A program made the translations under genes and the position numbers. A stretch of DNA of 64,000 bases from Escherichia coli (GTDB lineage: Bacteria > Pseudomonadota > Gammaproteobacteria > Enterobacterales > Enterobacteriaceae): NCBI RefSeq assembly GCF_003018255.1, contig NZ_CP027440.1. One strand, 5' to 3'. A model generated the notes under the pieces. It had not been told where the DNA came from. It searched no databases and saw only the letters and a list, made by a program, of their open reading frames with translations. Positions 1,354-35,718 of this stretch are shown one piece after another (positions within the stretch are counted from its first letter, which is position 1; each line of letters opens with the position of its first letter).

Positions 1354-3834
1354 ATGGGTATTCAGAATTTCGACCACTCACACCACAAGCTCAAAATTCG
1401 CGGCCTGAAAAGCCCGGTGGACGTGCTGACGTTTACGGGCCGGGAACAACTCAGCGCACCCTTCCGCTACGACATTGAATTTACCAGTACCGATAAAACC
1501 ATCGAGCCGGAGTCGGTGCTGATGCAGGATGGCGCATTCAGCCTGACGGCACCGCCGGTACAGGGAATGCCGGTACAGACTGCCCTGCGCACCCTGCACG
1601 GCGTCATTACCGGCTTTAAACATCTCTCATCGTCACAGGACGAAGCCCGTTACGAAGTGCGCCTTGAACCCCGTATGGCGCTGCTTACCCGCAGCCGCCA
1701 GAACGCCATCTACCAGAACCAGACGGTGCCGCAAATCGTCGAAAAAATCCTGCGCGAGCGGCACCAGATGCGCGGTCAGGACTTCGTGTTTAACCTCAAA
1801 AGCGAATACCCGTCCCGTGAACAGGTGATGCAGTACGGTGAGGACGACCTGACGTTTATTTCACGCCTGCTGTCAGAAGTGGGTATCTGGTTCCGCTTTG
1901 CCACCGACGCCCGGTTGAAAATCGAAGTTATCGAATTTTACGACGACCAGAGCGGCTACGAGCGCGGGCTGACGCTGCCGCTTCGCCATCCTTCTGGGCT
2001 GTTTGATGGTGAAACGGAAGCCGTATGGGGGCTGAACACCGCGTACAGCGTGGTGGAAAAAAGTGTCTCCACGCGGGACTACAACTACCGTGAAGCCACG
2101 GCGGAAATGACCACAGGCCAGCATGACGCCACCGGGGGCGATAACACCACTTACGGCGAAGCCTACCACTATGCCGACAACTTCCTGCAACAAGGCGATA
2201 AAGAGGCAGCGGAAAGCGGCGCGTTTTATGCCCGTATCCGTCACGAACGCTACCTGAATGAACAGGCCATTCTCAAAGGCCAGAGCACCAGTTCACTGCT
2301 GATGCCGGGGCTGGAGATAAAAGTTCAGGGCGACGACGCGCCTGCGGTGTTCCGCAAGGGCGTGCTGATTACCGGCGTGACGACCAGCGCGGCGCGTGAC
2401 CGCAGCTATGAGCTGACGTTCACGGCGATACCGTACTCAGAGCGCTACGGCTACCGTCCGGCGCTTATCCCCCGCCCGGTCATGGCCGGAACGCTCCCGG
2501 CGCGGGTCACCAGCACGGTGAAGAACGATATCTATGCCCATATCGACAAAGACGGGCGCTACCGGGTCAACCTCGATTTTGACCGCGATACGTGGAAACC
2601 GGGTTATGAGAGCCTGTGGGTACGCCAGTCGCGCCCGTATGCGGGAGACACCTACGGCCTGCATCTGCCGCTGCTGGCGGGAACGGAGGTCAGCATCGCG
2701 TTTGAGGAAGGCAACCCGGACCGACCGTATATCGCCGGGGTAAAGCACGACTCGGCGCACACCGACCATGTGACCATCCAGAACTACAAGCGTAACGTGC
2801 TGCGCACCCCAGCAAACAACAAAATCCGCCTCGACGATGAGCGCGGCAAAGAGCATATCAAGGTCAGTACCGAGTACGGCGGCAAGAGCCAGCTAAACCT
2901 CGGCCATCTGGTGGATGCCGGGAAACAGCAGCGCGGCGAAGGCTTTGAACTGCGTACCGATATGTGGGGCGCAGTGCGGGCGAAGAAAGGCATCTTTATC
3001 AGCGCCGATGCGCAGGACAAGGCTCAGGGTCAGGTGCGGGAAATGGCTCCGGCAATGGCAATACTGGATGGCGCACAGTCACAGATGAAGTCGCTGTCCA
3101 CTGATGCGCAGACGGCGAATGCCGATCCGGCAGATCTGTCATCACAGATAGCGCTGTTGCAGCAGAGTGTAAAAGATCTGACGCAGGCGGTGATCCTGCT
3201 AAGCGCACCCAAAGGCGTGGCGATCGCCAGCGGCGAGCACCTGCAACTGGCGGCGGCAAAGAATGTGATAGCCAACGCAGGCAACAACGCCGATGTCGGC
3301 GTGGTGAAAAATATGTTTATCGGCGTGGGACAGGCGCTGAGCGTGTTTGTGCGTAAAGCGGGCATCAAGCTGTTTGCCAATAAGGGCGCAATCTCGGTGC
3401 AGGCGCAGAACGACTTGATGGAACTGTTGGCGAAGAAGGAAATCATCATTACCAGTACCGAAGATGAAATTAAAATCACGGCGAAGAAAAAGATCACCCT
3501 TAACGGCGGTGGCAGCTACATCCGGCTGGATGCCTGTGGGATAGAAGCGGGAACGCCGGGAGAATATAACGTTAAGGCGGGATATTATGGGCGTAAGCCG
3601 AAGGCGAAGCTGACGCCGGAGCTGATGGCGTTTCCGGTGATTGAGGGTGGAGACTATTCTCGCTGTTTTAAATTTTTTGATGACGAAAATATCCCATATC
3701 GTAATGTTAAGTATATAGCCAATTTTATTGATGGAACAAAAAAGGAAGGTGTCACTGATGATGAGGGATGCACCGAAACATTTTTTAGTGATAAAGAAGA
3801 AGAAATTGAAATTGAGATTTTACTTGGTGTTTAA
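1354..3834 (+). CDS. vgrG: T6SS spike protein VgrG with C-terminal extension
   Basis: 826-aa ORF. The N-terminal two thirds read as a gp27/gp5-like VgrG (N-terminal block ...GLKSPVDVLTFTGREQLSAPFRYDIEFTS...). The last ~60 codons are AT-rich and unlike the core. SD AACGGAGG precedes the ATG. Confidence 0.85.
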   Translation: MGIQNFDHSHHKLKIRGLKSPVDVLTFTGREQLSAPFRYDIEFTSTDKTIEPESVLMQDGAFSLTAPPVQGMPVQTALRTLHGVITGFKHLSSSQDEARYEVRLEPRMALLTRSRQNAIYQNQTVPQIVEKILRERHQMRGQDFVFNLKSEYPSREQVMQYGEDDLTFISRLLSEVGIWFRFATDARLKIEVIEFYDDQSGYERGLTLPLRHPSGLFDGETEAVWGLNTAYSVVEKSVSTRDYNYREATAEMTTGQHDATGGDNTTYGEAYHYADNFLQQGDKEAAESGAFYARIRHERYLNEQAILKGQSTSSLLMPGLEIKVQGDDAPAVFRKGVLITGVTTSAARDRSYELTFTAIPYSERYGYRPALIPRPVMAGTLPARVTSTVKNDIYAHIDKDGRYRVNLDFDRDTWKPGYESLWVRQSRPYAGDTYGLHLPLLAGTEVSIAFEEGNPDRPYIAGVKHDSAHTDHVTIQNYKRNVLRTPANNKIRLDDERGKEHIKVSTEYGGKSQLNLGHLVDAGKQQRGEGFELRTDMWGAVRAKKGIFISADAQDKAQGQVREMAPAMAILDGAQSQMKSLSTDAQTANADPADLSSQIALLQQSVKDLTQAVILLSAPKGVAIASGEHLQLAAAKNVIANAGNNADVGVVKNMFIGVGQALSVFVRKAGIKLFANKGAISVQAQNDLMELLAKKEIIITSTEDEIKITAKKKITLNGGGSYIRLDACGIEAGTPGEYNVKAGYYGRKPKAKLTPELMAFPVIEGGDYSRCFKFFDDENIPYRNVKYIANFIDGTKKEGVTDDEGCTETFFSDKEEEIEIEILLGV

Positions 3835-3866
3835 AAATACTACCCTTAATTATTAAAGAGAAAAAA

Positions 3867-4601
3867 ATGAGCAAAAATGTAATATTAAGTAATGGGGAAA
3901 GAGAAAATCCTTCTCCGCTGATCTATGACAAGCATAAAAAGCACTGTATTTTTCGTACAAAGACATTACTTAGTGAAGAGAAAAAAGAAGACGAAAAATG
4001 TACTGTATCAGTTGTATTTATTGATCATGAGGGGTATATAAGAAATGCTGGAATTATAAAACACACAGTCCCTGAACTTGAAGAAGGTCGCATGCCTAAA
4101 ATTAATGCAATAATATTGCATAGAACAGATTCTTCAACAATAAATGGTACACTTGCTAGTTTTTCTAAAGGCATTGGAACTCATTTTATTGTTGAAAAAG
4201 ATGGTAATATATACCAGGCTGCAAGCCTATTTGTATATACCAGCCATGTGGGGAAGATAAAGTCTCGATGTAAGGAGGAAAAAACATGGTCGTCTGAAGA
4301 AAAAAAGAAAACAGAGGCATTCGGATGGAATGCTAAGAAGATACATGATCATGAAAAAATTAAACAATATCCTTATAGATATCCATATAATATGGACAGT
4401 GTTGGCATTGAGGTTATTGCATTATATGATAAAAAAAATAAAAAATGGGAGTCTGCTACAGACTCTCAAAAAAAATCAATTGAGAAACTTGTAGATATAA
4501 TAAAAAATATTTATGAGTTAGAAGATAGGGATGTTTATGAACATGATAAAATTAGTTATAAAACAGAAGGTGAAGGCGCTGATCTCTATAGTGTTAATTA
4601 A
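3867..4601 (+). CDS. Putative T6SS effector, Amidase_2 (PGRP/AmpD/T7-lysozyme-like) N-acetylmuramoyl-L-alanine amidase domain
   Basis: 244 aa with no signal peptide. Motifs ILHRTDS, THFIVEKDGNIYQ, SVGIEVIALYD and EHDKIS resemble Amidase_2 zinc-amidase signatures. AT-rich gene immediately downstream of vgrG. Confidence 0.55.
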   Translation: MSKNVILSNGERENPSPLIYDKHKKHCIFRTKTLLSEEKKEDEKCTVSVVFIDHEGYIRNAGIIKHTVPELEEGRMPKINAIILHRTDSSTINGTLASFSKGIGTHFIVEKDGNIYQAASLFVYTSHVGKIKSRCKEEKTWSSEEKKKTEAFGWNAKKIHDHEKIKQYPYRYPYNMDSVGIEVIALYDKKNKKWESATDSQKKSIEKLVDIIKNIYELEDRDVYEHDKISYKTEGEGADLYSVN

Positions 4602-4980
4602 TTTCTTTTTTTGTTCAAATAGTTACTCCGAAGAAAAAATAGAGATAATAAACATTAATAAACCAATATATATAGGTACCAATCAATCAGATAAGGTGCT
4701 TATTACTGCGTGTAATCATTGGGTGCTTAATTCTAGAGATATTATAGACATATTCAATCTAAGTATAAAGCATGATGATTATGGCGAAATAAACAGAATG
4801 TATTATTGGTTACCTTGTGAAATTAGAGGGAGACTAATGTATGACGGAATAGAATGGAGTTTTGTTATCAATGCTGCTGCAACAGCAATGTGGATGAGCA
4901 ATGATAAAGAGATTTACTGGGGATGCAATAAAAAAGCATGCGATAATTTCTTTTTATTACCATATGATGGGATGAGGTAA
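4543..4980 (+). CDS. Putative secreted (periplasmic) immunity protein for the upstream amidase
   Basis: Start is ambiguous (ATG 4531/4543 or GTG 4570) and overlaps the effector 3' end. N-terminus MIKLVIKQKVKALISIVLINFFFCSNSYS has the form of a Sec signal peptide. Small Cys-rich AT-rich ORF. Confidence 0.45.
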   Translation: MIKLVIKQKVKALISIVLINFFFCSNSYSEEKIEIININKPIYIGTNQSDKVLITACNHWVLNSRDIIDIFNLSIKHDDYGEINRMYYWLPCEIRGRLMYDGIEWSFVINAAATAMWMSNDKEIYWGCNKKACDNFFLLPYDGMR

Positions 4981-5085
4981 ATCACAGTTAATAAAGCAAA
5001 AACATTATGGACAAGTGAATTAATCAGATAGTTCAAGCACCTTGAGATTCATTGTATTCATATTTCAGAATAACGGATTATTACA

Positions 5086-6300
5086 ATGCCCATCCGACTT
5101 AATACCATTCCCGACGCAGAACCCTATCCCGCACCGCCAGCCCGCATTAAATGGCTGTCAGCCTTATTACTGATGCTGTCTGTTGGTGTGGCAATAACCT
5201 CATTATTCGCCAGCGATGAACTGGCAAAAAACGGCCCATATTTCTGGGGGCTGGCCTGCGGCGTGCCTGCTTTTATCTGGTCACTGGTCGGTTCGGTGCG
5301 CTGGCTGGTATTTGTCACTCAACATATTCGTGCCGATGCCTGGAATCAACGTCGCGAAGAAGTCATTTTGCAGGAAACACGGCGGGGACGACGGGCGTTG
5401 CAGATACTCAGTTTTTCCGTACAAACCGCGCTGAATGGTGATTCCGTCGCAGAAACTACAACAGCATTTCTGGCGCGTCATCAGGTGTTGAATACTTACG
5501 CTGATTTGCGCGGAGAAGATACCGTGCGTCGCAGTGTCATTCCCGTATTAACCAATAAACCGGTTACCGGGCGTTTATCCGAAATTATTTCCCGCCTTTT
5601 TATTGATATCAGACCGCAATTGTTTCTGCTGCCCCCTGATTTTCATATCAACGTACTACTGGAAATTGATGCGCCGCTTTCAGGGGCCTCCGTGAGAACT
5701 ATCTGGCAGGACGAATGGCAAAAAGCCGGACTCCCCGAAGCCCGTCTGTTTTCTGCCCCGGAGCCGGGGCTGGCCGCCGTGGACGACTGGCTGGACAACT
5801 TTATTCAGGAAAAGGCCGTACTGCTGGTGATTTCCGTGCGTCTGGAACCGAAGAACCCGGAACGGACGGCAGAATCCGCCACCGCGCTGTTGCTGGCAAA
5901 CCGACTGACGCAAACCGCGCTGACGCCGCTGGCCCTGCTGCATCGTCCTGAACGTATCACAGATACGGAGATGATGGCGTCAGGCATTGCACAGGCGCTG
6001 GACTGGATGCCGGTGCAGCCAGATGCCATATCCGGCATGTGGACAGTCGAACTGAACAGGGAACAGCGCGCCTCGCTGCTGTCATCTAACCAGCCGTTTA
6101 CTCAGGAAGCCCTGATGTACGAGCTGGATGCCTTTCTGGGGTGCTCCGGACCGGCAGCGCCGTGGCTGTCCGTCGCTGCGGCAACGCTGGCGGCAATACA
6201 ATCACAACACCCCCAACTGACGCTCAGCGGCGTTCAGAACGGGCATTATTCATGGGCGACCATGGTGTCGCCATTCGTTTCCCCTCAGGAGGCATCATAG
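5086..6300 (+). CDS. T6SS-associated inner-membrane protein of unknown function (two N-terminal TM helices plus ~330-aa soluble domain)
   Basis: 404-aa ORF. Hydrophobic stretches WLSALLLMLSVGVAITSLFA and FWGLACGVPAFIWSLVGSVRWLVFV lie near the N-terminus. Composition is GC-rich like the T6SS core genes. Placed between the cargo module and tssM. Confidence 0.5.
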   Translation: MPIRLNTIPDAEPYPAPPARIKWLSALLLMLSVGVAITSLFASDELAKNGPYFWGLACGVPAFIWSLVGSVRWLVFVTQHIRADAWNQRREEVILQETRRGRRALQILSFSVQTALNGDSVAETTTAFLARHQVLNTYADLRGEDTVRRSVIPVLTNKPVTGRLSEIISRLFIDIRPQLFLLPPDFHINVLLEIDAPLSGASVRTIWQDEWQKAGLPEARLFSAPEPGLAAVDDWLDNFIQEKAVLLVISVRLEPKNPERTAESATALLLANRLTQTALTPLALLHRPERITDTEMMASGIAQALDWMPVQPDAISGMWTVELNREQRASLLSSNQPFTQEALMYELDAFLGCSGPAAPWLSVAAATLAAIQSQHPQLTLSGVQNGHYSWATMVSPFVSPQEAS

Positions 6301-6356
6301 TGGTTCCGGGATTAAACCGTCTCCGGCCCCGTTCGGTTTCAGGGCCTGCCATCGTC

Positions 6357-9300
6357 ATGACCGTGGCCGTTGTGGTTGCGCTTTGCACGTTTATTCACCG
6401 TAAACCGGCATTGCTGGGCGTTGAACCGGGTAGTTCACAGCAAATGTACTGGATGGCTGGCGTGATTGCCGCAGGTGTGGTCTTTCTGATTATCATGGGG
6501 GTTTATCATCTGCTGAACCGCCACGCTGCCGTACAGAGCTTTGAACTCCACAGACAGCTTGCCGCCGGAGATGACTATCGGGCGGTGACGACAAAGAAAG
6601 CCGACAGCCGTCATCCGGCAATGGTGGAACTCGCCGCCTTCCTGCGCGACCGCTACGGCCCATTCTGGCGGCGTAAAATCCGCCTGCTGCTGGTGACCGG
6701 CGAGCCTGAACAGGCAGAGGCCATCGCGCCGGGGCTGACCGGGCAACACTGGCTGGAGGGCGACCACACGGTGCTGATATATGGCGGCAGGCCATCTACA
6801 GAGCCTGATGTCGCGCTACTGACCGCCTTAAAAAAACTGCGCCGCAGCCGTCCGCTGGACGGCATCATCTGGCCGCTGACAGAAGAACAGAGCCGCCAGA
6901 CGGCGCAACTCGACAAAGGCTGGCGCGAACTGATAAACGGCGGTAAGCGACTCGGTTTTCAGGCTCCACTCTATTTGTGGCAGGTCTGTGACAACGGTGA
7001 TTATCAGACCGGACGCCCCCTGCAAAGCGTCGGCTGCCTGCTGTCGGAACGCTGTACCCCGGAACAACTGGCTGCAATGCTGGAAGCACAAACCCTGCCG
7101 CTGACGGAACAGGGCATGTCGCAGCTGCTTACCGATAACCGCCATGATTTCCTGCTGCGTCTGGCCCATACCCTTGCAGAGCGGGGTATCGCTCACTGGC
7201 AAAGTATCCTGAAACCGCTGCTGGCAGGCGGCGCATTTTCCTCCCTGCGCCTGCGTGGCCTGATGTTCAGCCCGCCGCTTACCGCCGTACCGGAAGCCGC
7301 ACCTCATGCGTGGCTGCCGTCACCGGTCTGGGCGGGCGTGACCGGCGATAACGCGCGGGGTCGCACGGTGGGCTTTCCGTGGCTGCGTATCACGCTGATG
7401 TCTGCTGTCTGCGTACTGGCGATATGGGGGGCCGGAATGACGACCTCGTTCTTCGCCAACCGCGCACTTGTTCAGGAAACCAGCATCCAGACGGCGCGTG
7501 CACTCGATATCCGTCTGCCGCTGTCTGAACAACTGGTGGCGCTGCATACCCTGCAGGGTGAACTGGAGCGCCTGCAGTACCGTATCCGGGAGGGTGCGCC
7601 GTGGTATCAGCGTTTTGGCCTTGAACGTAACCAGCAACTGCTCGCCGCCGCCTTTCCCGGCTATGCGCAGGCGGCAAACCGGCTGGTGCGCGACGTGGCC
7701 GTTGACCATCTGCAACAGCAACTGAATGCCTTTGTCGCGCTGCCGCCCAATAGTCCGCAGCGTACCGCCACCGGCGAACAGCGCTATAAGCAGCTTAAGG
7801 CATTGCTGATGACTTCCCGCCCGGAAAAGGCCGACGCTGCCTTTTTCAGTACCACGCTGATGGCAGATGACCTGCGCTATGCAGGTGTACCGGAAGGTGT
7901 GCGTCAGAGCGTGTTGCCGTCACTGCTGACCTTCTGGATGGCGAATCTGCCGGAACACCCACAGTGGAAAACTTCGCCGCCACCGGAACTGACCGGCGCA
8001 GTGCGCAAAATCCTGCTGCGCCAGATTGGTGTGCGCAATGCCGAAAACACTCTCTACCAGAACGTACTGCAACAGGTGTCCCGCAACTACGCCGATATGA
8101 CGCTGGCGGACATGACCGGGGATACGCTCACCGAATCTCTTTTCAGTACGGAGCAGACGGTGCCGGGGATGTTTACCCGTCAGGCGTGGGAAGGACAGGT
8201 CAGGGAAGCCATCGAGCAGGTGGTGACGGCGCGGCGCGAGGAAATCGACTGGGTACTCAGCGACCGCCAGCAGGATACCTCTGCGGATATCTCGCCGGAT
8301 ATGCTGCGTAACCGTCTCACTTCACGCTACTTTACCGACTTTGCCGGAAGCTGGCTGGCGTTTCTCAACAGCATTCGCTGGAAAAAGGAAGACTCGCTCT
8401 CCGGCATTCTCGACCAGTTGACGCTGATGGCCGATGCCCGCCAGTCACCGCTGATTGCGCTGACAGACACCCTCGCGTGGCAGGCGGCGGCTGGCAGGGA
8501 AAACCGTGGCCTGTCAGACTCGCTGGCGAAATCGGCACAGGAACTGTTTAACGGCAAGGAGAAAACGCCGCAGCAATCCCGTGAAGGCGACGTGCCTGTC
8601 GGGCCGCTGGATAAAACCTTCGCGCCGCTGCTGCGGTTGCTTGGCGATAAGGCAGGAGGCGGCGACAGCCAGCTGAGCCTGCAGACCTACCTCACCCGAG
8701 TCACCCGCGTGCGCCTCAAACTGCAACAGGTGACCAACGCCCCTGACCCGCAGGAGATGACCCAGCAACTGGCGCAGACGGTCTTACAAGGCAAAACCGT
8801 TGACCTTACCGACACCCGCGACTATGGCAGCCTGATAGCCGCCAGTCTGGGTGAAGAGTGGAGTGGCTTCGGTCAGGCGCTGTTCGTCCGCCCGGTGGAG
8901 CAGTCATGGCGGCAGGTGCTGACGCCTGCGGCAGACAGCCTGAACCGCCAGTGGCAGCGGGCGATTGTCAGCCACTGGGATCAGGACTTCGCTGGTCGCT
9001 ACCCGTTCAAAGCCTCACAAAACGATGCCTCCCTCCCCCTGCTGGCGCAGTACCTGCGCGATGACGGGCGCATCAACCAGTTTATCGCCGCCAATCTTTC
9101 CGGCGTACTGAAACGTGAAGGCCGCTACTGGGTGGCTGACGCCATGAACACGCAGGGGCTGACAGTCAATCCGGACTTTATTCGCGCCCTGAACCGCCTG
9201 CGCGATGTGGCCGATACCGCCTTTGCCAGCGGCGATGCAGGGATACATTTTGAACTGCGGGCAAAACCGGCGCGCGACGTGATGAAGACGCATCTGGTGA

Positions 9301-9683
9301 TTGACGGGCAGGAGCTGGAATATTTCAACCAGAAGGAACGCTGGCAGCGTTTTAACTGGCCGGATGAACAGTGGCAACCCGGCGCATCGCTGAGCTGGAC
9401 CAGTACGCAGGCGATGGAACGCATACTGGCGGATTATCGGGGAAGCTGGAGCCTTATTCGCCTGCTGGAACAGGCGCAGGTGACACCGGTGGACAGCAGT
9501 ACCTTTAAAGTGGTGTGGAAAGCGCAGGACGGCCTGCCGCTGAATTACCTGCTGCGGGTTGAACAGGGTAAAGGGCCGCTGGCGCTGCTGGAACTGAAAA
9601 ACTTCCGCCTGCCGGGACAGGTGTTCCTGACCGGCAGGAGTATGAAGGATGCGGAAGAATACGGGGAAGACGCCGATGAGTGA
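6357..9683 (+). CDS. tssM: TssM (IcmF-family) T6SS membrane-complex protein
   Basis: ~1100 aa. Two TM segments at the N-terminus, a third around WLRITLMSAVCVLAIWGAGM, then a long C-terminal domain. Start is uncertain (GTG 6300 or ATG 6357; the track ORF begins at 6141). Stop overlaps the tssA start. Confidence 0.8.
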   Translation: MTVAVVVALCTFIHRKPALLGVEPGSSQQMYWMAGVIAAGVVFLIIMGVYHLLNRHAAVQSFELHRQLAAGDDYRAVTTKKADSRHPAMVELAAFLRDRYGPFWRRKIRLLLVTGEPEQAEAIAPGLTGQHWLEGDHTVLIYGGRPSTEPDVALLTALKKLRRSRPLDGIIWPLTEEQSRQTAQLDKGWRELINGGKRLGFQAPLYLWQVCDNGDYQTGRPLQSVGCLLSERCTPEQLAAMLEAQTLPLTEQGMSQLLTDNRHDFLLRLAHTLAERGIAHWQSILKPLLAGGAFSSLRLRGLMFSPPLTAVPEAAPHAWLPSPVWAGVTGDNARGRTVGFPWLRITLMSAVCVLAIWGAGMTTSFFANRALVQETSIQTARALDIRLPLSEQLVALHTLQGELERLQYRIREGAPWYQRFGLERNQQLLAAAFPGYAQAANRLVRDVAVDHLQQQLNAFVALPPNSPQRTATGEQRYKQLKALLMTSRPEKADAAFFSTTLMADDLRYAGVPEGVRQSVLPSLLTFWMANLPEHPQWKTSPPPELTGAVRKILLRQIGVRNAENTLYQNVLQQVSRNYADMTLADMTGDTLTESLFSTEQTVPGMFTRQAWEGQVREAIEQVVTARREEIDWVLSDRQQDTSADISPDMLRNRLTSRYFTDFAGSWLAFLNSIRWKKEDSLSGILDQLTLMADARQSPLIALTDTLAWQAAAGRENRGLSDSLAKSAQELFNGKEKTPQQSREGDVPVGPLDKTFAPLLRLLGDKAGGGDSQLSLQTYLTRVTRVRLKLQQVTNAPDPQEMTQQLAQTVLQGKTVDLTDTRDYGSLIAASLGEEWSGFGQALFVRPVEQSWRQVLTPAADSLNRQWQRAIVSHWDQDFAGRYPFKASQNDASLPLLAQYLRDDGRINQFIAANLSGVLKREGRYWVADAMNTQGLTVNPDFIRALNRLRDVADTAFASGDAGIHFELRAKPARDVMKTHLVIDGQELEYFNQKERWQRFNWPDEQWQPGASLSWTSTQAMERILADYRGSWSLIRLLEQAQVTPVDSSTFKVVWKAQDGLPLNYLLRVEQGKGPLALLELKNFRLPGQVFLTGRSMKDAEEYGEDADE

Positions 9684-11286
9684 ACTGTTGCAAAAGCTGA
9701 CCCGTAGCTGTTTTGCCGACCGGGACGCACTGGACTCGGCGCGAACACAGGCGGCGCTGTGGCAGACATGGCTGCTGCCGGTGACGGCAGATACGCCGGT
9801 CGGGGAAGACCCCGGCTACCACGACGATTTCCTGCGTATCCGCGACGAGATGAACAAACTTTCCGGCGCGGATACGGACCTTATCTGCCAGCTTGCCGAA
9901 TCCCTGCTGCTGACGCAGGCAAAAGACGTGCGCATCGCCACTTACTATATCTGGGCGCGACTGCACCGCGATGGCGAACGCGGACTGGCTGAGGGGCTGG
10001 CGCTGTTAGCCGGACTGGTGGAACGCTTCGGTGCGCAACTGCTGCCCTCGCGCCCGGCAAGCCGAAAAATGGCGCTGGAGTGGCTGGCAGGGGAAAAGAT
10101 GCTCGACAGCCTTGCCCGCTACCCGGAAGTGGCAAAAGAGGATTTTGCGAACATTGTTGCCGCTCTTAATCAACTGACGGTTTCCTTCACTGCATGGCCC
10201 GAAGACCAGCATTCCCCCTCCCTGATGCCGCTGATTAACGCGCTGGAATCACGTCTGGCGCAGTCGGGTGGGATGAACGCGGTGGTGCCGCAGAACAGCA
10301 GCGGCGTTCCGGCACCGTCTTCCCCGGTGGATGCGCCACAGGTACAGACCATCACTTCCGGGCGCGACCTGCTCGACCAGGCGAAAGTGCTGGCCCGTTA
10401 TCTGAACGAACAGCCGCAGGGCTGGCTTTCAGCACACCGGCTGATGAAAACCCTGCGCTGGGACACGGTGCATGAACTGCCGCCGGATGTGGACGGAAAA
10501 ACCCGGCTGGCCCCGCCGCGCACAGAATCACGCAACCAGCTTAAGCGGCTGTATGCTCAGCAGAACTGGACGGAACTGCTGGAGCAGGCCGACCTGATGT
10601 TCAGCACCGGCGTCAGCCATTTCTGGCTGGACATTCAGTGGTATCTGCATCAGGCGCTGACTAAGGCGGGCGCACCGTGGGACAGGTGGACAGCGGTTAT
10701 CCGTCAGGACCTGGCGTTACTACTGGAACGCCTGCCGGGGCTGGAAAATCTGGCATGGAACGACGGCACGCCGTTCGCCGATGAGTTGACGCGCAACTGG
10801 ATAGCGCAGCAGGTCATGATGCGGGAAGACGGCGCATGGCTTGCGGGGAAAGCCGCTGTACCGACAGACGACGCCACAAACGACGTACTGGCGCTGGAGC
10901 CGGAAGCGCTGGAGATGGCAGACAGTCAGGGCGTGGAAGCGGCGCTGGGCTGGATACAGACCCGTCCGGGCATCACCACGGCACGCCAGCGCCTGTTATT
11001 GCGACTGCTGATGGCGCGGGTGGCGGAACAGTACGGTAAAAACGAGATGGCGCTCCTGCTGCTGGAAGAACTGGATATCGCCGCACAGGGGCTGACGCTG
11101 ACGCAGTGGGAGCCGGACCTGCTGTTTGAGGTAAAAGCCCGACAGCTGAAACAGCTGCGCCTGCGGGCGCACCGCTATGCGGATAAAGCCCTGCTGAACC
11201 GAAAAATGGAAATCCTGCTGGGAACGCTGGTGACAATAGATCCGGTACGGGCAGCGGTATTGTGTGATACGCAACATAAGGACTGA
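9676..11286 (+). CDS. tssA: TssA (ImpA_N-domain) T6SS baseplate/cap protein
   Basis: N-terminal ImpA_N-like block (...LLPVTADTPVGEDPGYHDDFLRIRDEMNKL...). ATG at 9676 overlaps the tssM stop (ATGAGTGA); an alternative ATG lies at 9649. Confidence 0.8.
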   Translation: MSELLQKLTRSCFADRDALDSARTQAALWQTWLLPVTADTPVGEDPGYHDDFLRIRDEMNKLSGADTDLICQLAESLLLTQAKDVRIATYYIWARLHRDGERGLAEGLALLAGLVERFGAQLLPSRPASRKMALEWLAGEKMLDSLARYPEVAKEDFANIVAALNQLTVSFTAWPEDQHSPSLMPLINALESRLAQSGGMNAVVPQNSSGVPAPSSPVDAPQVQTITSGRDLLDQAKVLARYLNEQPQGWLSAHRLMKTLRWDTVHELPPDVDGKTRLAPPRTESRNQLKRLYAQQNWTELLEQADLMFSTGVSHFWLDIQWYLHQALTKAGAPWDRWTAVIRQDLALLLERLPGLENLAWNDGTPFADELTRNWIAQQVMMREDGAWLAGKAAVPTDDATNDVLALEPEALEMADSQGVEAALGWIQTRPGITTARQRLLLRLLMARVAEQYGKNEMALLLLEELDIAAQGLTLTQWEPDLLFEVKARQLKQLRLRAHRYADKALLNRKMEILLGTLVTIDPVRAAVLCDTQHKD

Positions 11287-12698
11287 TGGCAATGGGAACA
11301 GGCTACTTTCTGGTCAGGGGGGACAAAACCACCTGCGGCGGCAAAATTATTGAAGGCGCGGACGACCATACGATCATGGGTATCCCGCAGGCGCGGGATA
11401 TGGACCGGGTCACCTGCGGCAGATATCCGGGAATGTTTATTATTGTGGGCGGCGTTCCTGAAACAGATATTCACGGCAGGCTGATGGCGGGGACGCTGGA
11501 CAGTCAGAGCAGTTGCCCGTGTAAGGCACGGTTTATTGCGTCAATGATGGATGATACGTATGAGACGGATGACGGGGAAAGTGAAGCGGAACAACATGCG
11601 CAGTCGGCGAAAAAGGATCTGACTTCTGGTTCTGATTCATCCTCTGATGATGTAAAACTGGATTACAGAATTAAATTATCAGGTAATAAGATACTGACGC
11701 CACTGAATATACCTGATTATAAAGAAATGATTAGCGGTGGTAGTACGAAGAATACAGAAAAAATAGATTTTACCATCACAAATAAAGGCGATGAGGCTGA
11801 AGCGCTTTCTCTGGAAGTGCTTGATGGTAATGAAGTGATTTATAGTGAACGGCAGACCGGTAAATATTGTGATAAGGGAGAGCATGCCTGGCAATGGGAT
11901 GGCTACAGTAATCAAGGCATACTGGATACAACTAAGATAAAAAGCAAATCACTACTCGTAAGACTGATTGCTTTATGTGGTGATATGATGATAAAAGTTG
12001 ATTATCCATTGAAAAATGCTGCGAAAGAAGAAGAGTGGGTTGATGTAAAAGTTGACAGAAATAATAAAGTGGTCGATATAACATGGAGATTATCTGTTAA
12101 GGATAGCGGTACAAAAGGCAGTAACCCTGAGTTATCGCCAATACCTTATAGCGATTTAGTTAGTCTTACTAAAAATGGCGTGGAGTTTTACTGGTCACGA
12201 AATGGAAGTCGCGGCGGGGGAATTGGTGGTAATATCGTTACAGCGATTGGGGTTTTTAAAGTAAATGTAAAGGCTGAGATAAATATTACTCCATCTATGC
12301 GAACTTTTGATTTGATATCATCGTTAGATCCAGATATGCAGTCGTCGGTAAGTCTTTTGGGGTTTGAAAAAATATACCATAACTATGGTGGCTATTATAA
12401 TAACAGCAAGGATGAAATAAAGGCTCTTCTATATAGTAATGAAAGATATAAATGGGATAGTGCTCATGAGATGGGACATAAAGTTATGGATAAATATGGT
12501 TCTGAATCATGGACACATAAGGGGACATCCACGCGGGGTCAAAGTACCATCCCTAATACTCCAATGCCATCTTCAGGAGAGATTGATATAATGAAATATG
12601 CAGATAGCTATGCACCTGATAGATATAAGAGATTGGTCGCGGCAGATGAAGATGTTCAGGCATTGATCTGGTTGAGCAGGGTGAGTTTTAATGATTAG
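11286..12698 (+). CDS. PAAR-like domain protein with C-terminal HExxH (zincin-like) putative toxin domain
   Basis: N-terminus (GDKTTCGGKIIEGADDHTIMGIPQARDMDRVTCG...) resembles PAAR/DUF4150 spike-tip domains. C-terminal region is AT-rich and contains HEMGH. ATG overlaps the tssA stop (TGATG). Confidence 0.6.
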   Translation: MAMGTGYFLVRGDKTTCGGKIIEGADDHTIMGIPQARDMDRVTCGRYPGMFIIVGGVPETDIHGRLMAGTLDSQSSCPCKARFIASMMDDTYETDDGESEAEQHAQSAKKDLTSGSDSSSDDVKLDYRIKLSGNKILTPLNIPDYKEMISGGSTKNTEKIDFTITNKGDEAEALSLEVLDGNEVIYSERQTGKYCDKGEHAWQWDGYSNQGILDTTKIKSKSLLVRLIALCGDMMIKVDYPLKNAAKEEEWVDVKVDRNNKVVDITWRLSVKDSGTKGSNPELSPIPYSDLVSLTKNGVEFYWSRNGSRGGGIGGNIVTAIGVFKVNVKAEINITPSMRTFDLISSLDPDMQSSVSLLGFEKIYHNYGGYYNNSKDEIKALLYSNERYKWDSAHEMGHKVMDKYGSESWTHKGTSTRGQSTIPNTPMPSSGEIDIMKYADSYAPDRYKRLVAADEDVQALIWLSRVSFND

Positions 12699-12713
12699 AA
12701 TAATTGTTTTTTA

Positions 12714-13115
12714 TTGTTTTTTTTGAGTGGGTGTACTTCACAAAAAGAGTATTCCAATATAGTCAGGATTGAGAATAGATGCTCCTCAGATATCGATGTC
12801 TTTATTCAGGGATATGTTTCCGGTTCTACGCTGATTTATCAGCATAATATACACTTGCCAGTTGGTGATAGTGATGTATTAGTATATTTTTCCACGGCAG
12901 ATATTGATGATGGTTTTAAATATGAGGGGGCATTCATGATATATAAAGATAGCCGCGGTGAATTGGATTATCCATTCACCATTTCATTGTCAGGGCGCGA
13001 AAAAAAATTTGGGAAGAATGACTTAATTAGATTATCACGAGATATTTCAACAAAAGACGACAGAAAATACGGAGTTATAAGATATATAATCGACAGTCAG
13101 GAAATTTGCCCGTGA
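12714..13115 (+). CDS. Small AT-rich ORF, candidate immunity protein; 5' end probably disrupted by a homopolymer frameshift
   Basis: The track ORF starts at a TTG. An upstream ATG at 12691 (overlapping the PAAR stop) encodes MIRIIVFYCFF and then hits a stop after a T8 tract. One extra T would give MIRIIVFYCFFLSGC..., a lipoprotein signal with lipobox. Confidence 0.4.
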   Translation: MFFLSGCTSQKEYSNIVRIENRCSSDIDVFIQGYVSGSTLIYQHNIHLPVGDSDVLVYFSTADIDDGFKYEGAFMIYKDSRGELDYPFTISLSGREKKFGKNDLIRLSRDISTKDDRKYGVIRYIIDSQEICP

Positions 13116-27293: not shown

Positions 27294-29120
27294 TTATTCC
27301 CGCGAACTAAACAATGCCGCCAGACCACTGCGCCGCTCAGTGCGCGTGGCAATTGCCGCACTTAAAATGCGCTCATCGGCATACAGCGACAGACGGCGAC
27401 GCGCGCGGGTCACTGCGGTGTAAACCAGCTCTCGCGTTACTACCGGCGTGCGTTGACTCGGTAAAATCAACGCCGCATGGTCGAACTCCGATCCCTGCGA
27501 TTTATGTACCGTCATCGCCCACGTCGTTTCGTGCTCTGGCAGGCGACTCGGTTGCACAGACTTAATATTGCCGTCCGGCATCGCAAACCAAACGCGCGTC
27601 CCCTGCCCGCGATCCAGCGCAATACCGATATCGCCATTAAACAACCCAAGCGCGCTGTCATTACGGGCAATCATCACCGGTCGGCCTTCGTACCAACGAG
27701 AGTGCGGATTACGATGAATTTTGCGCTTCTGTTGCATAAACTGCTCAATTCGCTCATTCAGTCCAGCCACGCCAAACGGCCCTTCCCGCAGGGCGCACAA
27801 AAGCTGGTACTCATTGAACGCCTGAATGATTAAATCCGGCTCGGCACGCGCTTGCAGCAGATCCAGATAACGCCCGTAACCCGCAAGAGCCTCCTCAAGC
27901 ATCGCAATATAGTCTTCGCCGCTCTGTAAGAGCCGTTTTTCGATATCAGTAAAATCCTGCTGAAAAACGGTTTTCACTGCCGTTTTATCACCACGGTTGA
28001 TCGCCGCAGCTAACTGACCAATGCCAGAATCGCTGCCGAAACGATAGCTTTTTTGCAGCAGGCAGAGACTGTCGCGCAAAGATGCCGCTTCTGTGCCAGT
28101 TCCTGACGGAACGTGAGTTCCCGTCAGGCGGCTCAACTGCCCGGCACGCTCGGCGGTAAAGCCCGCGTTGGCATAAGCGCAGATATCGCCCAGCACAGCT
28201 CCAGCCTCAACTGAGGCCAGTTGATCGCGATCACCGAGGAAGATCACTCGCGCATGATCGGGCAACGCATCGATCAGGCGCGACATCATGGGGAGATCGA
28301 TCATTGACGCTTCATCCACCACCAGCACATCAAGATGCAGCGGGTTACCGGCATGATGACGTAAACGCTGGCTACCCGGCTGCGCACCCAGCAATCGGTG
28401 CAAAGTGCTGGCATCTTCCGGAATGCGTTTCTTTTGTTCATCGGTCAGCGGTAACTGGCGCAAAGCCTTGCCGAGAGATTCGGTTAAGCGCGCGGCAGCT
28501 TTACCCGTTGGTGCAGCCAGACGGATACGGCAGCGTTCGCCGTCTGCCATTTGAATTAACGCTGCCAGCAACTTCGCTACGGTGGTCGTTTTACCGGTGC
28601 CAGGGCCGCCGGAAATCACCGAGATCCGCCGCGTCAGCGCCACTGCCGCCGCCACTTTTTGCCAGTTAATTTCATCGCTTACTGGAAAAAGTTTGTCCAG
28701 GGTTTGCGCCAGTAGAGCTTCATCAACCTCAATGGCATGATTCACTTCGTTGAAAAAGCGTGCCACTGTGCGCTCGTTACACCACATGCGATTCAAATAA
28801 AGACGATCACCACAGAGGATCATCGGCGTTGGTTCATCTCCCCGGCTGACCGCTTGTGAAGCCAGCAAGCATTCTTCCCAATTTTGTAACTCACCGATTT
28901 CGCTGACGCAGGTTGCTAACAGCGGATGTGACGCCTCGTTATTTTCCAGTCGTGAGAGCGGTAAACAGACATGCCCTTCCCCGGCGTCGTGGCTTAACAG
29001 GGCTGCCGCGAGGGTGACGGCAGGATGTTCATCTCCCGCCACGGTCAGGGCAAATTGCACATCCAGCGGGCGTAACTGTTTGTGCTCCACAGCTTCCAGT
29101 AATTGCTTTTGCAATTTCAT
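27294..29120 (-). CDS. recD: Exodeoxyribonuclease V alpha subunit RecD
   Basis: 608 aa. Walker [10 protein letters not shown]. Overlaps the recB stop. Confidence 0.92.
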
Positions 29121-32100
29121 TACGCCTCCTCCAGGGTGATACCGGCAAACATCTCATCCATCAGGTCAATCAACCCGGCGTTGGGTCGGGTCGCGTAGAT
29201 CCCTTGTTGCGGATGTTCTTTATCAACACCACGCAGGAACAGATAAATAACGCCGCCAAAGTGGCGCTCATAGTCGTAATCAGCAATGCGATGGCGCAGA
29301 TAACGGTGCAGCGCCAGGGTATAAAGCTGATATTGCAGATCATAGCGGTGTGCCTGCATTGCCGCTGCCATAGCCTGTTGGGTGTAAGCAGAACTGTCTT
29401 CACCCAACCAGTTGGATTTATAGTCGAGCAGGTAATAACGCCCTTCGTGGCGGAACACCAGGTCAATAAAGCCTTTTAACATGCCGCGTACCTGCATGAA
29501 CTCCAGCGGCGGGCAGCCAGCGGATAGCGAGTCAAACTGGCGAATTAGTGCATCAAGCTGGCTGGCGATGAGCGGTTCGCTAATCGGCAGGTAAAACTCC
29601 ATCTCCACCTGTTTATCGCGGTCGGAAAGCTGACTCAGGCTAACACCCGTTTCATTGAGAGGTGCCTGGAGGACAGCCGTGATCCACTCGGTCAACACCG
29701 GTTCCCACTGCGATTCAAAGCCGCCGAGTTCCAGTTTTTCCTGTACCCAGTTCGGGTCAACCGGCTGGGTAAAATCGAGGTCTTCAAACAAACTGTGCAA
29801 GAATGTCCCCGGTGACGCACCGCGCGGGAACTGATGCGGTGTTAACGTCGGTTCGTCAACGACGCTGACCACGCCTGCGGCATCAACATCCAGCCGTGGC
29901 ATCAGATCCTGAGCGATACCGTGACCACGCTGCTGCAAACCGGAGTAGCTGGTGACACGCCAGTTATCGCCGGGCAATCGTTGTAGCGTCCTCGCATTCA
30001 GTTCTGCAGTTATAGCATCATTAACCTGCCAGGGCTGGTTATCACCAGTTTGTGCCGTTTGCCAGGCAATATCATCATCGCATAACGCTTCAATACAGGT
30101 GCGAAGCCCTGCCGCATCTTGCGGTTCCCCTTTTTGCAGCAAACGCCCGAGCGCACTTTGGTGGACGTCGGTGTCACCTTTTTTATCGCCACGACGGCGC
30201 ACCAGCGGTGCAACGCCGAGACTGCAATGCCAAACCGAACGCGTCAGCGCCACGTAAAGCAAACGCAGATCTTCCGCCAGACGTTCGGCCTCCGCGAGAT
30301 CGACGCTTTCTGGCGCAGCATTAAGATCCAGAACAGCCTCAAACGAGTGGCGATCGTGATAGAACGCCTGATCCTGGACGCGGAAATTGGTAATAAATGG
30401 CAACCAGACCAGCGGATATTCCAGCCCTTTTGATTTATGGATCGTGACAATCTGCACCAGATGTTTATCACTTTCGAGGCGCATTTGTTGGCTGGAGGCA
30501 TTACTGTCTGGCTCGAGGATATGTTGCGATAACCAGCGTACCAGCGCATGTTCACTTTCCAGCTGCGTTCCGGCTTCTTGTAGCAATTCGCTGATATGCA
30601 AGATATCGGTAAGACGCCGCTCACCGCCTGCTGTTGCCAGCAAGTTTTCTGCAATGTTACGCGCCGACATCAGCGCCCGCAGCATCGGCATAACGCCACG
30701 TTTGCGCCAGATTTGCCGATAACCATCGAACTCTTCGACGACCGCATCCCACGCATGTTCGTCATTATTCAGCGTTTCAATATCCAGCGCATTCAGCCCC
30801 ATCATTGACGTTGCCAGCGCACTGCGCAGGGTGTTCTCACGTTCGGGAGTCATCACCGCCTGCAACAGCCAAAGCATCTCCTGCGCTTCCAGAGTTTCAA
30901 AAACACTGTCGCGGTTCGAAAGGTAAACGGAAGGGATTTCCAGCAGCATTAAGGCATCGCGCACCTGGGCGGCCTCCTGGCGGCTGCGCACCAGCACACT
31001 GATGTCCGAAGCACGCACCGGACGCGCGTCGTCGCCGTTCATCAGCAACGCTTCGCCCCGCTGTCCGGCTTGTAGCCAGTCGCGGATTTGCGCAGCACAT
31101 ACCTGCGCCATGGTACTTTGATAGTCGCCAACGCCGCAGCTTTCGCCTTCCATCAGCCACATTTTCATCGCAGGCTGCGTTTCACCTTTAAACACAAAAC
31201 GTAACGCCTGATTTTTGCCGGCAGATTTCACAGGAATAAACGGTATTTCACGAAACATGAACGCGTCATCAGTCTGGCTGAAAAGTTTGTTAACGCTGTT
31301 CACCATTCCCGGTGCGGAACGCCAGTTGGTATCTAAGGTGTAGTGAGCATGAACTTCGCTACGCGCCTTCATATAAGTGAAGATATCCGCACCCCGGAAT
31401 GCATAAATAGCCTGTTTCGGGTCGCCAATCAGCAACAATGCGGTTTCCGGCTGATGGTGCCAGATACGGCGAAAAATTCGATACTGCTGGGGGTCGGTAT
31501 CCTGAAATTCATCGATCATTGCCACCGGGAATCGCGTACGGATCGCCGCTGCCAATACCTCGCCGCTTTCACTACGCAGCGCGGAATCGAGCCGACTTAA
31601 CATGTCATCAAAACCCAATTCGCCACGGCGGCGTTTTTCACGCGCTACTGTTTCGCGGATCTCAGCCAATGCGCTGGTGATCACCAGATCGCGGATCGAC
31701 AATGGTTCTGCAAGCAGTTGATCGATCGCCTCAAACAGTGGATGTCGCGGGGTTTCCCCCCCGGCTTTCGTGCGATCTTCTAAGAAACGCTGAGAGAATT
31801 TTTCCAGCGACTCCGGCAACTGATAGCTGTTGGTCTCTTCTTCTGCCCAGGCGCTGATCTTGTCGATCCATTTAGCCTGATTGCTACGGTTAAACTTGCG
31901 TCGATCAATACCAGAAGATTCGATCAGCGCATCCAGTTCACCCACTGCGTCGCGCCACTGCTGTTTTACGGCATCAATACGCGCCACAATTTGCGCGTGG
32001 CGGGAAGCAAGCGTTTCATCATCGGGCGGCGGTGCTTTGATAACCGGTGCTTCGCCTTGCAGATAACGATTAATATCGCGCAGCAACGCCTGCGGCCCTT

Positions 32101-32662
32101 TCCAGGTTTCAAAGACCACCTGGGCAATTTCACGCGGCAGCGGGTAGCAGTGGCGACGCCAGAAATCGGCGCAGGCCTGGTAGCGTAGCAGAGACTCATC
32201 TTCAATCAGCTGCTGCTCAAACAGCATGCCGGATTCAAAGGCATTCAGGTTGAGCATGCGCTGGCAAAAACCGTGAATAGTAAAGACTGCCGCTTCATCC
32301 ATCTGCCGTTCGGCTAACAACAACCACTGCGCGGCTTGCGCTTTATCGTCGATCTCCTCCAGCAGGAGTTTGTACAGTGGATTGTCGGTGGTTTCACGCA
32401 GACAGGCGATGCGCAACTCGTGGATATTGCTACGGATACGACCGCGCAATTCTGCCGTGGCAGCCTCGGTAAAGGTGACCACCAGCAGTTCTTCAACGGT
32501 CAGCGGGCGGGGAAAGGCGGCAGAACCGCCTAGTCCAAGTAACAGGCGCAAATAGAGCGCCGCAATCGTAAAGGTTTTGCCTGTGCCGGCAGAGGCTTCA
32601 ATCAGGCGCTCGCCCTGTAAGGGCAAGCGCAAAGGATCTAGTGTCTCGGCGACATCACTCAT
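29120..32662 (-). CDS. recB: Exodeoxyribonuclease V beta subunit RecB
   Basis: 1180 aa from [13 protein letters not shown]. Helicase motif ASAGTGKTF. Confidence 0.92.
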
Positions 32663-35543: not shown

Positions 35544-35718
35544 TCACGGACCTCATAATCAACTTTATTTTCTGGCCAGATTCAACAGGTTAACGCAAAT
35601 CATCTGCCAGAATTTAATCTTGTGCTGAACGAGTCAGCCTATGTCTATATATCCATCAGTCCGTGACTGGTGCGCATCATAAAGCAAGCAGATATATTGC
35701 GCAATTTTTATACAGCAC

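Follow-up and report, generated by a model that had tools for sequence, protein, structure and literature searches.

A tssM-coupled protein of Escherichia coli T6SS-1 clusters with a predicted membrane hairpin and a thiolase-type domain remotely related to the adaptor Tla3

Two type VI secretion system (T6SS) accessory proteins are the closest described counterparts of the protein considered here. Tla3 (PA0259) of Pseudomonas aeruginosa is an adaptor that loads the Tle3 lipase on VgrG2b, and it binds both the DUF3274 domain of Tle3 and the C-terminus of VgrG2b (PMC6560169). The thiolase-like PA0098, or TvpD, has been modelled with DUF2169 around the PAAR domain, as a PAAR chaperone (bioRxiv 10.64898/2026.02.23.707444; PMC11883445; PMC11872809). 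We analysed a stretch of 64,000 nucleotides from the Escherichia coli contig NZ_CP027440.1 (hereafter the window), which carries a T6SS-1 (Sci-1-like) cluster according to NCBIfam models and RefSeq annotation, and within it the open reading frame (ORF) that directly precedes tssM (hereafter the pre-tssM gene). The evidence supports well the conclusion that its product is a T6SS-specific accessory, combining a two-helix inner-membrane anchor with a catalytically dead thiolase/ketosynthase domain of the Tla3 (DUF2875) superfamily. More tentatively, at a probability of about 0.45, the protein is an adaptor or chaperone of the Tla3 kind, tethered to the membrane, that would link the loaded spike with TssM; its partners and its role in secretion are what we infer.

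An AlphaFold2 model of the pre-tssM protein, built from 21 homologues, had a mean predicted local distance difference test score (pLDDT) of 81 and a predicted template modelling score (pTM) of 0.72. It comprised a helical hairpin, a long basic helix extending to residue 100, and an alpha/beta domain spanning residues 104 to 396. When the model was compared with the Protein Data Bank (PDB) using Foldseek, the top match was 8yz3, the structure of Tla3 (E 9.4e-11), and the domain has the features of both the Tla3-type fold and the thiolase-superfamily fold. Structure prediction of the soluble domain, which the first-pass annotation of this gene had proposed, thus returned a thiolase-type fold with a T6SS adaptor as its closest structural neighbour. 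A tandem fusion of two soluble domains joined by a 30-residue linker, modelled from a shallow duplicated alignment (13 rows), reached a pTM of 0.48, and four of the five models were poor; no homodimer of the thiolase type emerged with confidence.

The relationship was also visible in sequence profiles. Searched against all PDB sequences, the family profile found 8yz3_A as its best match (E 0.015), over the segment Y-x-L-D-x-x-L-G-x-x-G-A-A-x-P. Two family alignments, A1 and A5, were compared by hhalign with a DUF2875 profile that consisted of only three full-length proteins from plasmid records, and matched it with Prob 75% (E 2.5e-5) and 83% (E 9.4e-6), respectively, across the C-terminal ~100 columns only. 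H286-R287-P288 was paired there with the HRP that is invariant in all three DUF2875 proteins, and LG.xG.AAPW with LGdTGAASPF. Single-sequence and family-model searches were negative: the window protein matched nothing in Pfam even at E<=10, none of 42 diverse members had a Pfam match at E<=0.001, no NCBIfam model matched the window protein, and a search of PDB sequences with it found nothing significantly similar. Likewise, the variants from E. coli EAEC 042 (EC042_4538) and KE51, described below, belonged to no family in Pfam, NCBIfam or PDB-sequence searches. Homology between the pre-tssM family and DUF2875 appears real but remote, being well supported by structure and moderately by sequence.

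Conservation across 113 full-length homologues, 21 to 38% identical to the window protein, argues that the domain has lost catalysis. No column of this alignment exceeded 18% Cys or 55% Ser, leaving no conserved nucleophile, and H286, the sole conserved His (94%), gives way to Leu in the EAEC-type family, which has LLRP instead of LHRP. Neither Pfam nor NCBIfam returned an enzyme family (no ketoacyl-synthase or thiolase), and no enzyme was among the PDB sequence matches. Since no Cys is conserved and H286 is replaced in the EAEC family, the Cys-His-His/Asn chemistry of condensing enzymes and thiolases is absent, and the domain may most economically be read as a protein-binding pseudo-enzyme. 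Clear homology to an unrelated housekeeping family, an outcome that would have spoken against the first-pass annotation, was not found; the catalytic Cys is missing, and in structure the protein is matched best by a T6SS adaptor.

The N-terminal part of the protein resembles a membrane anchor. The ORF and its hydropathy agree with the earlier description of a 404-aa protein with two N-terminal transmembrane (TM) helices and a soluble domain, the latter measuring ~300 aa. Family means for Lys plus Arg were 3.5 in the N-terminal tail, 0.9 in the loop and 7.0 after TM2. Because the tail and the post-TM2 stretch are basic and the loop is not, the positive-inside rule predicts an N-in/C-in topology, which would place the ~300-aa domain (residues 104 to 396) in the cytoplasm. 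Within the hairpin, W23, W54, W65 and R72 were conserved among the 113 homologues, followed by R90 and R103; R90, R102, R103 and Q106 were invariant in A1, the window-family alignment. In the domain, the conserved positions were G228, D233, W235-L236-D237, E263, H286-R287-P288, W307, W319, G352, G355 and W360. As the first-pass annotation had pointed out, this topology is unlike that of TssL, with an N-terminal hairpin rather than a C-tail anchor and no NCBIfam or Pfam match. No TssL/DotU, TssM/IcmF or TssJ model matched the pre-tssM protein, and TssM, TssJ and other core genes were identified separately in the window. A duplicate of the TssM hairpin and cytoplasmic domain was also considered and rejected, as the fold is thiolase-like rather than IcmF-like and no TssM model matched.

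Linkage to tssM was tight and wide. Of 81 homologous loci, 61 had tssM immediately after the pre-tssM gene, in the same orientation, and 2 more had it within two genes. The remaining 18 included 1 with tssM at the contig end, 5 with tssM remnants or frameshifts, which raise the count of co-occurrence, and ~10 true orphans. Members at 24 to 26% identity kept the order PAAR-target-tssM-tssA or vgrG-x-x-target-tssM-tssA-tssF-tssG, where the target is the pre-tssM gene. The synteny survey suggested in the first pass thus bore out co-occurrence, and the gene, far from being absent in related T6SS clusters, was present there, including EAEC Sci-1. In most related loci the tssM start overlapped or closely abutted the pre-tssM stop: the two overlapped (GTGA or ATGA) in 27 of 62 loci, 52 of 62 had the start at a distance of -3 to +13 nt, and the Shine-Dalgarno sequence was usually inside the last codons of the pre-tssM gene. 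In the window, the probable start of tssM is the GTG at 6300, overlapping the TAG and preceded by AGGAGG at a distance of 8 nt, whereas RefSeq places the start at an ATG at 6357.

Two further E. coli T6SS-1 clusters carry divergent proteins in the same slot. In Sci-1 of enteroaggregative E. coli (EAEC) 042, an unannotated 382-aa protein, EC042_4538 (WP_001403985.1), with the same layout of two TM helices and a domain, is encoded between a PAAR gene (EC042_4537) and tssM. BLASTP of the window protein against EC042_4538 recognised only the C-terminal motif (42 residues), whereas hhalign of A1 against the EC042_4538 family (A2) gave Prob 97.8% and E 7.6e-13 over 346 columns, including the hairpin. 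The slot of E. coli KE51 (L091:2264-3697) encodes a variant of 477 aa that carries two additional TM helices at its C-terminus and directly follows tli3-like, Tle3 and PAAR genes; from vgrG, the order there runs through a 274-aa gene, Tle3 (Pfam Tle3, E 2e-103), PAAR and the 477-aa variant to tssM. This variant aligned with A5, for the window family, at Prob 97.6% (E 3.8e-12, 349 columns), and the EAEC family matched it at Prob 96%. Mutual identity among the three E. coli variants is 24 to 27%, that of the window and KE51 proteins 24%. With full-length homology that includes the TM hairpin, and a position coupled directly upstream of tssM, the window protein is a member of the unnamed EC042_4538-type pre-tssM family, proteins that NCBI labels 'type VI secretion protein' without a model.

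The variation does not stop at the end of the pre-tssM gene. Between the window (6300-6630) and KE51 (L091:3704-4030), the first ~110 residues of TssM, containing its TM1-TM2 hairpin, were 22 to 24% identical, whereas from the motif LRDRYGPFWRRK onward the two proteins were 93 to 100% identical, which puts the breakpoint at the conserved LRDRYGPFWRRK. From this mosaic profile we conclude that the pre-tssM gene and tssM's 5' end were swapped as one block, together with cargo. Across 20 loci, divergence of the pre-tssM protein was correlated with that of the N-terminal 95 residues of TssM after controlling for the rest of TssM (partial rho 0.23, permutation p 0.008), and for the TM part of the pre-tssM protein the partial rho was 0.39. 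Such a correlation would fit co-adaptation of two membrane hairpins.

Cargo upstream of the pre-tssM gene was variable and included BTH_I2691-family, PLD-type and LysM/CHAP-type proteins. An effector family of ~740 to 1000 aa with peptidoglycan-hydrolase-like motifs occurred in 37 loci (e.g., L002:6714-9422 and L069:5397-7619), and a PAAR gene of ~90 aa was directly upstream of the pre-tssM gene in 17 loci, as also in EAEC. Approximately 10 loci, mostly in Pseudomonas, had an effector-immunity-target arrangement without a nearby tssM and sometimes without vgrG; these copies were intact and under purifying selection (pairwise dN/dS 0.13 to 0.29). In one Pseudomonas orphan island, a pair of genes upstream of the orphan copy, encoding 902 and 166 aa, was considered as TssM and TssJ and rejected, since BLASTP found no similarity, and the 902-aa protein belongs to the recurrent effector family. 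Given these orphan islands, the multiple copies found in several genomes (two or three each) and a gene fragment in Pantoea, the pre-tssM gene moves both with cargo modules and with tssM. The fragment (113 aa) separates two stacked effector-immunity modules in Pantoea sp. IMH (L034), ~3.5 to 4 kb upstream of a full copy at 10001-11197, and another orphan island (L068) ends 46 codons into a tssM remnant. These two loci suggest that recombination inserts cargo cassettes, using as its downstream arm the pre-tssM gene together with the tssM 5' end.

The ~740 to 1000-aa effector-like proteins carry SWHGG(I/V)H in their N-terminal and (Y/F)RGRGxxQLTG in their C-terminal part, and their gene is followed by one for a small secreted-looking protein. 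The family matched neither Pfam nor NCBIfam; we take the two motifs to resemble peptidase and lysozyme/chitinase signatures.

The family is widespread. By megablast, the window allele was present in 995 of 5426 complete E. coli genomes, about a fifth, and in E. coli DETEC-S792 the gene region is 100% identical to the window, with the same RefSeq coding sequence product (WP_001561982.1). Of 1.84 billion cluster representatives scanned, 340 matched at E<=1e-3, almost all of them full-length proteins of ~400 aa, and a scan of one genome per species recovered 80 loci in Enterobacterales and Pseudomonas. Members were found in Yersinia pestis, Enterobacter, Klebsiella, Pantoea and many Pseudomonas, to which neighbours in AFDB added Burkholderia, Paraburkholderia, Cupriavidus and Caballeronia. 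Searches of the literature for locus tags or accessions, for 'upstream of tssM' and for sciR found no paper, within coverage that was incomplete and could have missed an unindexed description. The family has neither a Pfam or NCBIfam model nor a name, though a homologue sits in EAEC Sci-1. That is the cluster used for solving the TssJLM membrane complex.

The features of the gene and its immediate neighbours are collected in Table 1.

Table 1. Coordinates of the pre-tssM gene, its parts and its neighbours in the window
Feature	Position	Strand	Evidence or remark
pre-tssM gene	5086-6300	+	ATG-to-TAG ORF, 404 aa; RefSeq WP_001561982.1 'hypothetical protein'
TM helix 1, residues 24-42, conserved W23 just before	5155-5211	+	Kyte-Doolittle 19-residue mean 2.23; model helix 20-41; W23 93% conserved
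TM helix 2, residues 53-77, conserved W54, W65, R72	5242-5316	+	Hydropathy 1.59; part of the model's long helix 50-100
Basic juxtamembrane helix, residues 78-103, with RRGRRALQIL motif	5317-5394	+	Family mean K+R 7.0 in residues 79-110
Thiolase/ketosynthase-fold domain without catalytic Cys, predicted cytoplasmic, residues 104-396	5395-6273	+
H286-R287-P288 motif, strongly conserved, aligned to HRP of DUF2875 proteins	5941-5949	+	Family alignment; hhalign
C-terminal L-G-x-S-G-x-A-A-P-W motif, common to EC042_4538 and Tla3	6136-6165	+	PDB profile search; BLASTP; G352 invariant
Translational-coupling junction	6287-6302	+	Shine-Dalgarno AGGAGG 6287-6292 in last codons; TAG 6298-6300 overlaps GTG 6300-6302 (tssM)
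vgrG (spike), head of the cargo module ending at the pre-tssM gene	1354-3834	+	TIGR01646, TIGR03361
AT-rich cargo pair	3867-4980	+	244-aa amidase-annotated effector 3867-4601; 149-aa putative immunity protein 4531-4980; RefSeq; GC 0.31
tssM, T6SS inner-membrane subunit	6300-9683	+	TIGR03348; RefSeq 'ImcF-related family protein'

In the window, tssH, cut by the window start, is followed by vgrG, the 244-aa gene, the 149-aa ORF, the pre-tssM gene, tssM and tssA, and then by a gene for a PAAR toxin with a small ORF, tssF, tssG, tssJ, tssE and a VasL-domain (TagA-like) gene. The GC content of the pre-tssM gene (0.557) is close to that of vgrG, tssM, tssA and tssF (0.56 to 0.61) and far from that of the two cargo ORFs directly upstream (0.31), and the earlier statement that its composition is like the GC-rich core and unlike the AT-rich cargo is correct. 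Neither tssK nor tssL was among the genes identified in the T6SS segment of the window; both are upstream of tssH in the EAEC 042 and KE51 clusters, in line with the earlier suggestion that they may lie upstream here too. A scan between the cargo and the pre-tssM gene found no terminator and only a weak promoter-like site at 5042-5071, and an Rfam scan of 3800-6500 had no match.

Neither ORF of the cargo pair (3867-4980) matched any NCBIfam model. The 244-aa protein is annotated as an N-acetylmuramoyl-L-alanine amidase, and the 149-aa ORF, which overlaps its gene by 71 nt, has a later start in RefSeq that shortens the product to 129 aa. Beyond tssA, window 11286-13115 encodes the 470-aa PAAR-domain protein, with a low overall GC content (0.42) suggesting an exchangeable toxin domain, followed by a 133-aa ORF (GC 0.36) that is probably its immunity gene. 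Upstream of the window in the same strain (L001:1862-14749), there are three tandem vgrG modules, with one pre-tssM gene shared by all three: vgrG-DUF4123-DUF3304-DUF2235 (Tle1-like), a module of two hypothetical genes and a frameshifted vgrG, and the vgrG-amidase module of the window. Further along the window (27294-39087, minus strand) are four large ORFs of 608, 1183, 962 and 1122 aa; their sizes and order resemble those of recD-recB-ptrA-recC, an identity which would put the T6SS island near that region.

Some clusters appear to have lost tssM function. In E. coli HH45 (L092:2452-3697), three small hypothetical ORFs take the place of the single gene, the annotation marks Tle3 and tssM as pseudogenes, and the cluster looks decayed. 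A 498-aa protein found on 90 contigs (P0035) results from an in-frame deletion that joins pre-tssM residues 1 to 314 to TssA residues 362 to 545. As this fusion removes all of tssM, it marks an inactivated T6SS-1 lineage. Two other proteins, P0042 (with a TssF Pfam domain) and P0056 (with a TssG Pfam domain), may be analogous fusions.

The adaptor model brings TssM coupling and hairpin co-variation together with Tla3 homology and cassette-like behaviour, because all of these have to be accommodated. According to this model, the pre-tssM protein would be synthesised in step with TssM through translational coupling and would reside beside TssJLM, probably touching the TssM TM1-TM2 hairpin via its own conserved hairpin. 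The cytoplasmic pseudo-enzyme domain would provide a protein-binding platform to hold the loaded spike (VgrG C-terminus, PAAR and cargo), or chaperone it, during baseplate docking, and the protein would remain behind upon firing.

Several observations weigh against a Tla3-like adaptor. The window gene does not adjoin a Tle3 effector, its cargo being the 244-aa amidase-annotated protein and the 149-aa ORF, and EAEC Tle1 has been reported, as related in PMC6560169, to bind VgrG1 directly. Within E. coli, alleles 96 to 97% identical follow different cargo, unlike what is expected of an effector-specific adaptor such as Tla3, and divergence of the pre-tssM protein did not follow that of the VgrG C-terminus (16 loci, partial rho 0.10); an adaptor dedicated to one effector was rejected on these two grounds. 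Block-wise co-variation with the tssM 5' end could be mere crossover placement. The relationship to Tla3 itself has gaps: the membrane anchor contrasts with soluble Tla3, hhalign did not connect the EAEC and KE51 variants directly with the three-row DUF2875 profile, and none of the 42 diverse members belonged to Pfam DUF2875 or Tla3_C (PF11394, PF20995), the best being one member with Tla3_C at E 0.094. Because the family models did not match, a membrane anchor is present and there is no tie to Tle3, we do not file the pre-tssM protein as a DUF2875 member, though it is most like Tla3/DUF2875.

The alternative that survives best, possible but on balance unlikely, is a purely structural or assembly accessory of TssJLM, which would stabilise or orient the TssM/TssL base or aid docking with no selection of cargo or spike. 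This would account for the deep, near-universal adjacency to tssM with translational coupling, the conserved hairpin residues and the occurrence of the same allele behind different cargo, and divergence of the pre-tssM protein tracks the core (rho 0.74 to 0.89 with TssM and 0.84 with the VgrG N-terminal core) instead of the VgrG C-terminus. It sits poorly with the ~10 loci where intact, selected copies accompany effector-immunity pairs with no tssM nearby, with two or three copies in several genomes, with a location inside the exchangeable cargo block in E. coli, and with a nearest characterised relative that is an effector adaptor. For similar reasons the first-pass view of a conserved cluster component stands only in part. 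The gene is syntenic with tssM and present in related clusters, but it sits in an exchangeable block, exists as at least three variants 24 to 27% identical, and occurs in orphan effector-immunity islands without tssM. A core subunit would be expected as one conserved copy in an invariant part of the cluster, and the exchangeable block, the additional copies and the orphans do not conform to this.

A bolder and doubtful version of the adaptor model makes the pre-tssM proteins a missing subtype-specific subunit of T6SS-1 (EAEC Sci-1-type), a membrane-anchored pseudo-ketosynthase on the TssM hairpin that links the loaded VgrG-PAAR spike to the membrane complex. If so, its exchange along with the tssM 5' end would reset the choice of cargo modules that a cluster can fire, and the published TssJLM structures, obtained from three over-expressed genes, would be without a native component.

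Three further explanations are less probable. We consider it distinctly improbable that the protein regulates firing or assembly post-translationally or serves as a checkpoint for them, such as by keeping TssM or the baseplate inactive until the spike is loaded. Pfam and NCBIfam gave no sensory or phospho-signalling domain, and the loci examined had no linkage to TagF or to PpkA/PppA/Fha; on the other side are the membrane location beside TssM, stoichiometric co-expression and the fact that pseudo-enzymes often act as regulators. Where the first-pass annotation had proposed an uncharacterised membrane-complex accessory or regulator, a T6SS-associated membrane protein is what remains, and nothing points to the regulator. 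Very improbable is an active thiolase-superfamily enzyme, such as an acyltransferase working on a lipid or effector at the membrane: the strong fold match to ketosynthases and thiolases, the 90 to 94% conservation of H286, D237 and E263, and one UniProt homologue labelled 3-oxoacyl-ACP synthase are set against the lack of a conserved nucleophile (at most 18% Cys or 55% Ser in any column), the loss of H286 in the EAEC family and the absence of sequence matches to any enzyme family. Least credible is an immunity or self-protection protein, or a functionless remnant marking the downstream recombination arm of the cassette, for although the gene lies at the 3' edge of effector-immunity modules, the Pantoea fragment lies between such modules and orphan islands end at the gene or 46 codons into tssM (L068), a domain predicted to be cytoplasmic cannot neutralise the peptidoglycan hydrolases and lipases that accompany it and act in the periplasm, one and the same allele occurs with unrelated effectors, and purifying selection with full-length conservation down to 21% identity does not suit a remnant.

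Returning to the adaptor model, what is new here is a dead thiolase fold related to Tla3 and tied to tssM by coupling and by block-wise hairpin co-variation; where cluster maps had an unlabelled arrow, there is now a concrete hypothesis for how loaded spikes meet the membrane complex. Compared with known proteins, the window protein is closest in setting to EC042_4538, with which it shares the slot, the two TM helices with a ~300-aa domain and the C-terminal motif, at only ~24% identity. It has the HRP and LG.xG.AAP motifs in common with Tla3/DUF2875 proteins, as well as vgrG/PAAR/effector neighbourhoods, and its KE51 sister variant follows Tle3, the position relative to Tle3 that Tla3/DUF2875 has in P. 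aeruginosa (PMC6560169) and in plasmid loci of Pseudomonas and Ralstonia. Hydrophobic N-terminal segments occur in at least one DUF2875 protein too, one from Ralstonia. In contrast, the pre-tssM protein is only 12 to 16% identical to Tla3/DUF2875 proteins and has no Pfam match; Tla3 is soluble and cytoplasmic (PMC6560169), whereas the pre-tssM protein has a predicted two-helix membrane anchor; and the gene is fixed at and translationally coupled to tssM, with the window allele unpaired with Tle3 or any single effector family. TvpD/PA0098 is, by its description, another apparently non-catalytic, thiolase-fold T6SS accessory encoded beside PAAR genes and a proposed spike-tip chaperone; unlike the pre-tssM protein it is described as soluble, and none of its DUF2169 (TvpA), DUF6484 or DUF4150 partner genes was near the pre-tssM gene in the window annotation or NCBIfam scan. 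From ketosynthases and thiolases proper, the pre-tssM protein differs in lacking the catalytic Cys-His-His/Asn and sequence similarity, in its membrane anchor and in its T6SS-only context. Set beside Tla3 and TvpD, the pre-tssM proteins would form a third branch of thiolase-fold T6SS pseudo-enzymes, one that is membrane-bound and coupled to tssM.

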